NCBI GenBank assembly: GCA_046759265.1
Contig: JBHIBW010000001.1
Coordinates: forward strand, 1 to 29,157
DNA from: Thermoplasmata archaeon
GTDB lineage: Archaea > Thermoplasmatota > Thermoplasmata > RBG-16-68-12 > JAJISG01
Direction: 5' to 3'
DNA: 29,157 nucleotides
How positions within the stretch are numbered: position 1 is the first letter of the stretch; every line of letters begins with the position of its first letter. Shown piece after piece: positions 2,536 to 20,364 of this stretch. Made by a program: the position numbers and the translations under genes. Below the pieces are notes generated by a model that was not told where the DNA came from, made no database searches, and saw only the letters and a list, made by a program, of their open reading frames with translations.

Positions 2536-2790
2536 TTACCTCTCCACGACGACCCGGTAGGCCACGAACACCCCGGCCGTGGCGCTCCGGCGAATGACCT
2601 TGATGACCCGGCCCTCCGCGACGGACTCGCCGACCACCTCTTCGAGGAAGCGGATGGCGGGGTCCGCACGCTTGATCTTCGGCAGCTGCTCCCGACCCAC
2701 ACGGAGTTCGGCCAGGATGCCGTCGGCCTCCTTCTCCGAGAGGAGGTGGTGCTCGGGGACCATATCGTGCTCCATCACGTTAAAGGCCAT
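2536..2790 (-). CDS. rpoH: DNA-directed RNA polymerase subunit H (Rpo5)
   Basis: HDMVPEHHLL...QLPKIKRADP...KVIRRSATAG..YRVV signature; directly upstream of rpoB. Confidence 0.96.
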   Translation of the reverse strand: MAFNVMEHDMVPEHHLLSEKEADGILAELRVGREQLPKIKRADPAIRFLEEVVGESVAEGRVIKVIRRSATAGVFVAYRVVVER

Positions 2791-2818: not shown

Positions 2819-2991
2819 CGGGCCCGCGGGGACTTTCGCTGCGCCTCCGGACGAGGCGCAATTTCGAACCCCGGACCATCTGGTTTCAGCGCAATCGCTC
2901 CCAGGAATTGCTCCTAGAGCATTGCCTAAAAGCCAGACGCTCTTTCTAGGGACCAACCTCCGGCCGTCCAACCTAGCTGAGCTACGGGCCC
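2819..2991 (-). tRNA. tRNA-Lys(UUU) with three introns: 2970-2944 (27 nt, 20/21), 2926-2885 (42 nt, 37/38), 2862-2833 (30 nt, 59/60)
   Basis: Reverse complement gives acceptor GGGCCCG/CGGGCCC plus G73, D-stem GCTC/GAGC, anticodon stem TCTGG/CCAGA with CT-TTT-A (anticodon 2930-2928) and T-stem CGGGG/CCCCG with TTCGAA..T. Removing three hairpin-forming inserts leaves 74 nt. Confidence 0.92.
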
Positions 2992-3155
2992 AGGGGGCGG
3001 CGGTGCGCAGGGTAAATTCAAGCTCCAGGCTGGGATAAACCTTACGGTGTGTCATGTCGGGCCAAATCGCCTCGATGTGCCGGGCCTCGAGTGGCCAGGG
3101 GCGATGGGGAGCGCGGCTATTTAATGCTCCCCCCATGCGGGGAGCCAGGGAATCC

Positions 3156-3162
3156 TTTTAAG
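3156..3162 (+). promoter_or_regulatory. Probable TATA box for the zinc-ribbon / EF-1beta transcript
   Basis: TTTTAAG in a GC-rich background ~25 nt upstream of GTG 3185, consistent with a leaderless start. Confidence 0.5.
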
Positions 3163-3184
3163 CGCCCTCGGGCTAGAACGAAGC

Positions 3185-3358
3185 GTGCTGGCCTGGATCG
3201 AGACCCAATGCACGACCTGTGGTCGTCCCCTGACGGAACAGGGCTCCGTGATCTTTCGGTGCCCGCGTTGCGGCGATACGACCATCGGACGCTGTGTTCG
3301 TTGCCGGGATCAGAGCGTCACCTACGCCTGCAAGAAGTGCGGCTTCCAGGGTCCCTAG
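3185..3358 (+). CDS. Small double zinc-ribbon protein (DUF1610 / HVO_2753-like), 57 aa
   Basis: Hand translation: ..QCTTCGRPLTEQGSVIFRCPRCGDTTIGRCVRCRDQSVTYACKKCGFQGP*. Four CxxC motifs and the conserved position immediately upstream of EF-1beta. Below the ORF-track length cutoff. Confidence 0.9.
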   Translation: MLAWIETQCTTCGRPLTEQGSVIFRCPRCGDTTIGRCVRCRDQSVTYACKKCGFQGP

Positions 3359-3366
3359 GTGATCGC

Positions 3367-3627
3367 GTGGGACGCGTGGTCGTCACCTTCCGGGTCATGC
3401 CGATGGGACCCGAGGTCGAAATTCCCCCGATCCGAGAGGCCCTGCGCACGTCCTTCGGGGAAGATCTGCGGGACCTGGCCGAGAAGCCGGTGGCCTTTGG
3501 CTTGGTTGGACTGGAGGCTGTCGTCCTGCTGGAGGACGCGGAGGGACGGCTGGAAGCGGCGGAATCGACGATCCAGCGTGTAGCGGGTGTCGGAAGCGTG
3601 GAGACCCTCTCCGTGGACCTGGTCTGA
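3367..3627 (+). CDS. ef1b: Elongation factor 1-beta (aEF1B)
   Basis: GTG 3367 after AGGTGA RBS; MGRVVVTFRVMPMGPEV...EKPVAFGLVGL...VGSVETLSVDLV. This is the 3' part of track ORF 3049..3627. Confidence 0.92.
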   Translation: MGRVVVTFRVMPMGPEVEIPPIREALRTSFGEDLRDLAEKPVAFGLVGLEAVVLLEDAEGRLEAAESTIQRVAGVGSVETLSVDLV

Positions 3628-10592: not shown

Positions 10593-10813
10593 GGTGTGAC
10601 GGCCATAGCGGCGGGGATACACCCGGTCCCATCCCGAACCCGGAAGTTAAGCCCGCCTGCGTTCCCTCTGGTACTGCGGTGCGCGAGCCCGTGGGAAGGT
10701 TGGCCTCGCAAGGGTCGTGGACCCCTGGTCTAGGCGCGCTAGCCTGGTCACTTCGGTAACCGGGTGAACCGTTGCCGTTGACGGCCAACGGGTCCGCGGA
10801 ACGCTGTCAGCCC
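10593..10813 (+). rRNA. rrf: 5S rRNA with ~96-nt internal insertion (10700-10795); ends approximate
   Basis: GGCCATAGCGGCGGGGATACACCCGGTCCCATCCCGAACCCGGAAGTTAAGCC core and loop E GGTA/GAA. Helix I TGACGGC/GCTGTCA and GAAGGG/CCCTTC closes only at ~10803-10816, about 100 nt later than in a standard 5S. Confidence 0.93.
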
Positions 10814-20226: not shown

Positions 20227-20312
20227 GCCGCCGTAGCTCAGCCGGCGAGAGCGACGGTCTTGTAACCCCGCAAGAGAACCGTAGGTCAAGGGTTCGAATC
20301 CCTTCGGCGGCT
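20227..20312 (+). tRNA. tRNA-Thr(UGU) with 12-nt intron at 37/38 (20265-20276)
   Basis: GCCGCCG/CGGCGGC acceptor plus U73, GCTC/GAGC D-stem, ACGGT/ACCGT anticodon stem with CT-TGT-A, AAGGG-TTCGAAT-CCCTT T-arm; 74 nt after splicing. Confidence 0.93.
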
Positions 20313-20364
20313 CTTGCCCCCAGAGTGAGCAGGGACCCAGGCTGGGATGTTCTCGGCCGACCGT

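Follow-up and report, generated by a model that had tools for sequence, protein, structure and literature searches.

The apparent spacer upstream of rpoH in an uncultured Thermoplasmata archaeon is a genuine lysine tRNA gene in four pieces. Within the window, by which we mean the whole 29,157-nt stretch of DNA that was analysed, the complete gene occupies positions 2819-2991 of the minus strand (173 nt), with four exons and three introns, one each in the D-, anticodon and T-loops. We consider it very probable that this is a functional tRNA-Lys(UUU) gene and the genome's only reader of AAA codons. It belongs to the known multi-intron BHB tRNA genes, and what stands out is the lineage of its host together with a mismatch between its splice motifs and the splicing endonuclease of that host.

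Exon 1 (2971-2991, 21 nt) supplies the 5′ strand of the acceptor stem, U8, A9, the 5′ strand of the D-stem and the D-loop as far as position 20, and is followed by intron 1 (2944-2970, 27 nt) at position 20/21 of the D-loop. Exon 2 (2927-2943, 17 nt) runs from A21 through the 3′ strand of the D-stem, G26 and the 5′ strand of the anticodon stem to C32-A37, including the UUU anticodon, and intron 2 (2885-2926, 42 nt) lies at the canonical 37/38 position. Exon 3 (2863-2884, 22 nt) resumes at A38 and carries the 3′ strand of the anticodon stem, the variable loop, the 5′ strand of the T-stem and T-loop nucleotides 54-59; intron 3 (2833-2862, 30 nt) interrupts the T-loop at 59/60, and exon 4 (2819-2832, 14 nt) closes the gene with U60, the 3′ strands of the T-stem and acceptor stem, and the discriminator G73, CCA not being encoded. 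An earlier note, made from the sequence alone, had proposed these coordinates on the minus strand for the gene and its three introns, and splicing in silico bears out every one of them. The joined exons give the 74-nt cloverleaf ending in G73 that the note had foreseen, with acceptor, D, anticodon and T stems of 7, 4, 5 and 5 bp, a D-loop of 9 nt, the anticodon loop CUUUUAA, a variable loop of 5 nt and the T-loop UUCGAAU, and ARAGORN calls this 74-mer tRNA-Lys(ttt). Cloverleaf, U33, the UUU anticodon, the conserved T-loop and the isotype call all identify the spliced product as tRNA-Lys(UUU). The 173-nt precursor is itself more stable than its dinucleotide shuffles (z = -4.8, with 0 of 200 shuffles as good). 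The unspliced gene, by contrast, is found by ARAGORN neither without introns nor with introns of up to 120 nt allowed across the whole genome, and the Rfam tRNA model (Infernal) finds it neither at the gathering score nor at E <= 10, so the expectation that standard annotation would miss it holds for both tools on raw sequence.

Comparison of the rpoH-upstream locus in relatives, which the earlier note had recommended, recovers the same gene in about 95 genomes. A 221-nt region is matched in 40 of 41 relatives of the same order, and spliced alignment of the mature sequence to 96 rpoH-upstream loci always returns a 74-nt product, identical to the window's at 67-74 of its 74 positions. Across these loci the intron positions 20/21, 37/38 and 59/60 are fixed while the lengths vary (26-56, 22-104 and 27-60 nt, respectively); one ortholog, L109:847-1135, has unusually long introns of 51, 104 and 60 nt at the same three positions, making a gene of 289 nt. 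The loci yield 18 distinct spliced products, all with the anticodon UUU, in which 98.7% of stem cells are paired and compensatory double changes occur at four stem pairs. In the intron interiors, on which tRNA function places no constraint, sequence and length diverge and the hairpins stay (mean z against shuffles -2.3 in the D-loop intron, -2.2 in the anticodon-loop intron and -3.4 in the T-loop intron).

The splice sites can also be read from genomes in which the introns are missing. An intron-less form of the gene stands in the same place upstream of rpoH in L102 (labelled Methanomethylophilaceae) and L112 (labelled Methanomassiliicoccaceae), and also in L232 and L233 from more distant Thermoplasmata. 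All four equal the predicted spliced product at all three junctions, and the splice sites are thereby established without recourse to the BHB rule. Together with the conservation in about 95 loci, this match rules out a chance origin. It also settles the register of intron 1: only with 27 nt does excision yield the D-loop seen in the intron-less orthologs, and a 25-nt register, which had been entertained as a less canonical alternative, fails to do so and is ruled out.

All three introns show 3-4-3 geometry at the cut sites that yield the mature tRNA, and introns 1 and 3 adopt the folds described here without constraint. Intron 3 is a strict hBHBh' motif, in which the 5-bp T-stem serves as h and stacks directly on the central helix UUCG/CGAA, flanked by the bulges AA|A and AG|U and an h' of 9 bp. 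The helix, the bulges and the 59/60 position had all been recognized correctly; the 8-bp outer stem of the earlier description is to be corrected to this intronic h' helix of 9 bp. In the T-loop the central helix has 4 bp in 64 of 65 unique orthologs, where UUCG pairs with CGAA or CGGA. For intron 1, an unconstrained fold of the D-arm with its intron returns the central helix CUAG/CUAG, the bulges GU|U and AA|A and the outer helix GGAC/GUCC, so that helices, bulges and the 20/21 placement stand as first described. The site is not strict, however. The D-stem and the central helix are separated by A14 and G15, both unpaired, which places the 3′ cut site in a 2x3 internal loop, and because the 3′ bulge lies opposite these two unpaired bases the D-loop intron is a relaxed motif of the HBh' type, its h' being present. 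The same HBh'-like form (h length 0) is seen in all 66 unique orthologs, 65 of which have the 4-bp CUAG/CUAG helix. Unconstrained folds recover the central helix in 64 of 66 orthologs for the D-loop and in 57 of 65 for the T-loop.

For intron 2, the position and the long h' hairpin (GCAAU-GCUC / GAGC-G-AUUGC) are borne out, and h is present as well, but the central helix CUUU/GCUG forms only two of its four pairs, against four of four for both the D-loop and T-loop helices of the same genome. This weakness is a property of the window's own family, to which the degenerate partners GCUG or GUCG are confined; in most other families all four pairs form, CUUU being paired with AAAG, AGAG, GAGG, AAGG or GAAG. 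Unconstrained minimum-energy folding says nothing either way about the anticodon-arm motif: the U-run and the A-run slip relative to one another, and the central helix is recovered in only 1 of 48 cases. The minimum-energy fold of the full precursor holds all three motifs together, and since they coexist in one fold, no order of intron removal is required.

It is plausible to envision, then, a maturation pathway in which three separate BHB motifs would form at once in the D-, anticodon and T-loops of the precursor, with the loop nucleotides of the tRNA providing one strand of each 4-bp central helix. The single two-unit (alpha'2-like) EndA would cut both 3-nt bulges of each motif, and the ligase RtcB would join the four exons into the 74-nt tRNA, to which CCA would be added afterwards. 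Both enzymes are encoded in the MAG, RtcB at G000:C49 and EndA as a single gene of about 350 aa at G000:C18; a second EndA-like gene was looked for in the MAG and not found.

It is the nature of this EndA that makes the pathway less than straightforward. The protein comprises two N+C endonuclease units, both complete and read in the same frame (PF02778 and PF01974, twice). By alignment its catalytic Tyr, His and Lys lie in the C-terminal unit; the N-terminal unit reads FRVF against FRGY, with Phe at the Tyr position. Such tandem units within a single polypeptide, of which the C-terminal one alone has the catalytic triad, are a hallmark of alpha'2 enzymes. A second hallmark is not seen here: in the EndA of Thermoplasmatales, Halobacteriales and Archaeoglobales the N-terminal unit is degenerate and its C-terminal domain carries a deletion (PMC5829648), whereas in this protein that unit matches PF01974 from position 1 to position 85 (75.7 bits). 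Where A. pernix and S. tokodaii have the Crenarchaea-specific loop (CSL) of roughly 10 residues, this EndA shows a gap, and it aligns through the region without gaps to the loop-less M. jannaschii enzyme. Judged by its sequence, then, the protein is a two-unit, alpha'2-like EndA without the CSL. In the PDB it is matched best by the fused beta-alpha M. kandleri enzyme 5x89 (E 2e-40, the alignment covering both units), followed by the A. fulgidus alpha'2 enzyme (5e-27) and, across its last 85 residues only, that of T. acidophilum.

The prevailing view is that alpha4 and alpha'2 enzymes recognize the strict motif only (PMC3239211, PMC3488258; for alpha'2 also PMC5829648) and that "Cluster II" Euryarchaeota encode alpha'2 enzymes only (PMC5829648). 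By these textbook rules the tRNA may well be made, but not by an alpha'2-like EndA of the usual kind: either the enzyme would have a broader specificity without any of the known loops, or, at the D-loop 3′ site and the degenerate 37/38 helix, it would depend on help from a protein cofactor, from a second nuclease or from folding in a set order. We hold this to be possible but somewhat doubtful. The invariably relaxed D-loop motif speaks for it, as does the missing CSL, given that both the A. fulgidus alpha'2 enzyme and the loop-less M. kandleri enzyme remove the D-loop HBh' intron known from M. kandleri poorly in vitro (PMC5829648); the completeness of both units and the closer match to the fused M. 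kandleri enzyme than to the A. fulgidus or T. acidophilum proteins point the same way. Set against this are the failure to find a second EndA-like gene and the fact that EndA is colinear between intron-rich genomes and intron-poor relatives, the search for a lineage-specific insert in the former having turned up none. Moreover, M. kandleri does splice its HBh' intron in vivo, which means that weak in vitro activity may suffice. The same full-length form of EndA is present in G052 (family f17), whose Lys gene is aligned by the intron-less query only over about positions 23-61, in G106 (f12), whose Lys gene is intron-less, and in the intron-poor G041; the genomes of families f20 and f24, in which the Lys gene is likewise intron-less, have a shorter, Thermoplasma-like EndA. 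One may also propose that the complete two-unit, loop-less EndA common to this part of the Thermoplasmata is a functionally distinct endonuclease that cuts relaxed motifs, both those of the HBh' type and those with a weak helix, in the D-, T- and anticodon loops without L1, L2 or L3 and that it enabled a class-wide and partly transposition-like spread of D- and T-loop introns, an idea about which we are more doubtful than confident. If true, it would overturn the accepted rule by which multiple non-canonical introns are confined to (alpha-beta)2 and epsilon2 lineages.

On our preferred reading, in which the precursor is matured by EndA and RtcB, the gene also needs a transcript. A candidate BRE/TATA promoter (CGTAAGG and TTTATC) lies at 3034-3046 on the minus strand, 43-55 nt upstream of the mature 5′ end, and a box of the AAAG/TTTAWC type (AAAG-TTTAAC in other families) recurs 43-58 nt upstream in 71 unique orthologs; in these the AT fraction reaches 0.94-0.99 at -53 to -51 within otherwise GC-rich DNA. 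From this conservation we infer that the box acts as a promoter and that the tRNA would be transcribed from it, about 45 nt upstream, probably on a transcript shared with rpoH. In the product of the divergent gene on the other side (window 3049-3627, plus strand), only the last 80 residues match an EF-1 guanine-nucleotide-exchange (EF-1beta-like) domain; the N-terminal 110 residues have no Pfam match. Downstream, rpoH (2536-2790, minus strand; Rpb5 C-terminal domain) begins 28 nt beyond the tRNA, with AGGAGG at 2802-2797. No TATA-like box was found in the 28 nt between them, which hold a Shine-Dalgarno sequence only, and the tRNA may thus be the first element of an RNA polymerase operon transcript driven by the upstream BRE/TATA box, processed out of its leader. 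A leader-trailer "processing stem" that seemed conserved on inspection was rejected: its best helix, at 5.7 bp, does not clearly exceed the 5.0 bp of shuffles, and only 7 of 63 loci are nominally unusual.

This arrangement invites another interpretation, namely that the element is a tRNA pseudogene in decay, or else serves the rpoH-rpoB operon as a structured leader, derived from a tRNA but never matured into one. The promoter-free gap of 28 nt in front of rpoH and the rejection of the gene by standard finders would fit such a reading. So would the contigs of a DNase-treated metatranscriptome, which cover the unspliced locus only and one of which spans 2723-2951, from the tRNA into rpoH, although DNA carry-over may account for them; a search of one metatranscriptome for reads across the three junctions returned no joints with a tool for which the exons are too short. 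A pseudogene or unmatured leader, however, should not keep its exons at least 67/74 identical across about 95 genomes while its introns diverge freely, nor preserve compensatory stem changes, an invariant UUU anticodon and the BHB motifs. We therefore regard this interpretation as very improbable, the more so as no other Lys(UUU) gene was found although AAA codons are used.

Whether the genome has any other tRNA-Lys(UUU) had been put forward as a check, and no second copy was found in this 86%-complete genome. Colinear blast chaining, which replaced an over-strict clustering of blast matches, and spliced alignment, with 55 mostly intron-less tRNAs from two intron-poor relatives as probes, located only one Lys(UUU) locus and one Lys(CUU) locus in the MAG. 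A class-wide search with the intron-less gene likewise gave no full-length match in the MAG, nor in the more complete genomes G003 (94%) and G008 (95%). In five confirmed genes of the window AAA is used 17 times and AAG 93 times. With a sole Lys(UUU) locus and AAA codons in use, the gene is apparently essential, as far as an 86%-complete genome allows that conclusion.

The host MAG measures 1.76 Mb in 280 contigs, with 6.6% contamination and 64.6% GC. It encodes PolD and an unsplit RpoB, in keeping with the "euryarchaeal-type" host that had been surmised, and its nearest public relatives are MAGs labelled Thermoplasmata or Methanomassiliicoccales from sediments, soils and vents. Fragmentation and contamination of this order could in principle raise the suspicion of an assembly or binning artefact, that is, a chimeric contig or insertions made by the assembler. 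The identical 173-nt structure, however, recurs across independent MAGs that come from different studies and is seen in independent DNA runs as well, and to such an artefact we assign next to no probability. The window also holds a stand-alone 5S rRNA gene at 10595-10711 (plus strand), seen as one contiguous full-length Rfam match (model 1-120, 84.5 bits).

The lysine gene is not alone in its genome. At least seven tRNAs of the MAG carry a T-loop intron at 59/60. The six others, each giving a clean tRNA after excision, are Lys(CUU) at C16:16896-16784 and Leu(UAA) at C133:3535-3400, both with a second intron at 37/38; Arg(CCG) at C149:3185-3061, with a second intron in the D-loop; and Met(CAU) at C43:3122-3029, His(GUG) at C3:25096-24997 and Ser(CGA) at C39:11754-11853, with the 59/60 intron by itself. 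Each of the six has a central helix of 3-4 bp stacked on the T-stem. Matches of the T-loop scan that lay within coding regions or overlapped the true 3′ ends of intron-less tRNAs were discarded (among them those on C8, C15, C23, C36, C37, C40, C51, C71 and C80), and "introns" of 2-13 nt in spliced alignments (e.g., C43:3290, C139, C140, C102 and C17) are alignment artefacts and were not counted. By eye, the T-loop introns of the Arg and Leu genes are identical at 17 of 21 positions, and that of Lys(CUU) has the same GGGCC hairpin design; such likeness hints that T-loop introns may have been copied between tRNA genes.

Standard tools fare poorly on this repertoire. The Rfam model matches 30 tRNAs in the host MAG against 44, nearly all of 71-75 nt, in the intron-poor relative G041, and ARAGORN mis-calls the Lys(CUU) gene on C16 as Ser(aga). 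Its intron mode also reports Ser(gga) and an undetermined tRNA at C41:11385-11292 and C132:3877-3781, which on removal of a canonical BHB intron of 19-22 nt are tRNA-Glu(CUC) and tRNA-Glu(UUC), respectively. A tRNA-Thr(UGU) gene in the window (20227-20313, plus strand) has a very short intron of 12-13 nt adjoining the anticodon and is found both by Rfam (62.6 bits) and by ARAGORN, the latter reading a 4-base anticodon without intron mode. ARAGORN and Rfam are in effect blind to essential tRNAs in these genomes, those for Lys, Met, His, Arg, Leu and Ser being missed or mis-called, and because such tRNAs are overlooked, the tRNA counts used as quality criteria for MAGs come out too low.

The distribution of the introns was surveyed in 121 genomes of the class, the aligned part of the intron-less query indicating where a gene is broken. 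The Lys(UUU) gene is intron-less in families f12, f20 and f24, broken in the T-loop in f14 and f16, in the D-loop in f19, and in both loops in f17 and f21; spliced alignment confirms f16 (T only), f19 (D only) and f20 and f24 (none). The part of the Thermoplasmata with D- and/or T-loop introns includes, by the organism names on the records, the genus Methanomassiliicoccus, which is believed to have cultured members. In an RpoB tree (IQ-TREE, midpoint root) the window's clade comprises 61 rows (support 99/90), and all three introns are present in 58 of them; two of the remaining rows could not be scored, and L130 has the D-loop and anticodon-loop introns only. The sister clade (20 rows, support 99/86) has D- and T-loop introns, and nested within it with strong support are the intron-less Methanomethylophilaceae, which implies intron loss and suggests the precise removal of both introns in the lineage of L102, L112 and L126 (the last also labelled Methanomethylophilaceae). 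This nested lineage is intron-less although its EndA has the same full-length form. The order in which the introns were gained across clades is provisional, since the root of the RpoB tree is not established.

With at least seven T-loop introns in one genome and a 61-row clade adjoining a two-intron clade, the inference that this lineage has accumulated multi-intron tRNAs is upheld. The earlier note would have counted its reading as refuted should the host fall in a group where such tRNAs are routine. They do prove routine within the class, but the group itself is unrecorded: reviews (PMC4033280, PMC5829648, PMC8450103) do not list Thermoplasmata among bearers of multi-intron tRNAs, and a non-exhaustive literature search found nothing relevant on tRNA introns of Methanomassiliicoccales or other Thermoplasmata. 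Multi-intron tRNAs are on record for Crenarchaeota, N. equitans, M. kandleri, M. thermautotrophicus, Korarchaeum, ARMAN-1/2 and C. merolae (PMC4033280).

Among the systems closest to this one are the Thermoproteales, three-intron tRNA genes being known from Pyrobaculum, Thermofilum and Caldivirga (Sugahara et al. 2008, via PMC4033280 and PMC8450103). As there, up to three BHB introns occur per gene at sites of the D-, anticodon- and T-loop type, many tRNAs are affected, and similar introns turn up in different tRNAs; the MAG has three introns in Lys(UUU) and two each in Lys(CUU), Arg(CCG) and Leu(UAA). The Thermoproteales, however, are Crenarchaeota with a heterotetrameric (alpha-beta)2 EndA bearing the CSL (L1), whereas here a single two-unit EndA without the CSL is encoded. 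The 59/60 site itself is known from ARMAN-2, whose pre-tRNA-Pro(GGG) has strict hBHBh' motifs at 53/54 and 59/60 and whose pre-tRNA-Cys(GCA) has a relaxed hBH motif at 59/60 (PMC3239211). The T-loop site is identical and is likewise built on the T-stem and T-loop nucleotides, but the ARMAN-2 enzyme is a three-unit epsilon2 EndA with an ASL loop, and neither that unit nor that loop is present here.

M. kandleri offers a further parallel, its pre-tRNA-Glu(UUC) combining a euryarchaeal-type host, D-loop HBh' and 37/38 introns, and a loop-less EndA (PMC5829648). It differs in having separate genes for the alpha and beta subunits, two introns instead of three and no reported T-loop introns, and in being a single species where the trait is class-wide here. 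Korarchaeum cryptofilum also joins a homodimer-type two-unit "alpha2" EndA to multi-intron tRNAs with non-canonical sites (PMC3239211), although its catalytic unit roots with the (alpha-beta)2 enzymes and carries L1 (PMC5829648), which is absent here. A eukaryotic three-intron tRNA shows the same three-arm layout but depends on a different, Sen-type endonuclease. Reviews link multi-intron tRNAs and non-canonical introns to loop-bearing endonucleases and hold alpha'2 Euryarchaeota to strict, mostly canonical introns. A whole section of the Thermoplasmata departs from this rule: conserved introns in the D- and T-loops, with as many as three introns in one gene, go together with a two-unit enzyme that is loop-less. 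Because partly relaxed motifs here coexist with such an EndA, the rule of co-evolution between introns and endonucleases becomes directly testable in this lineage.
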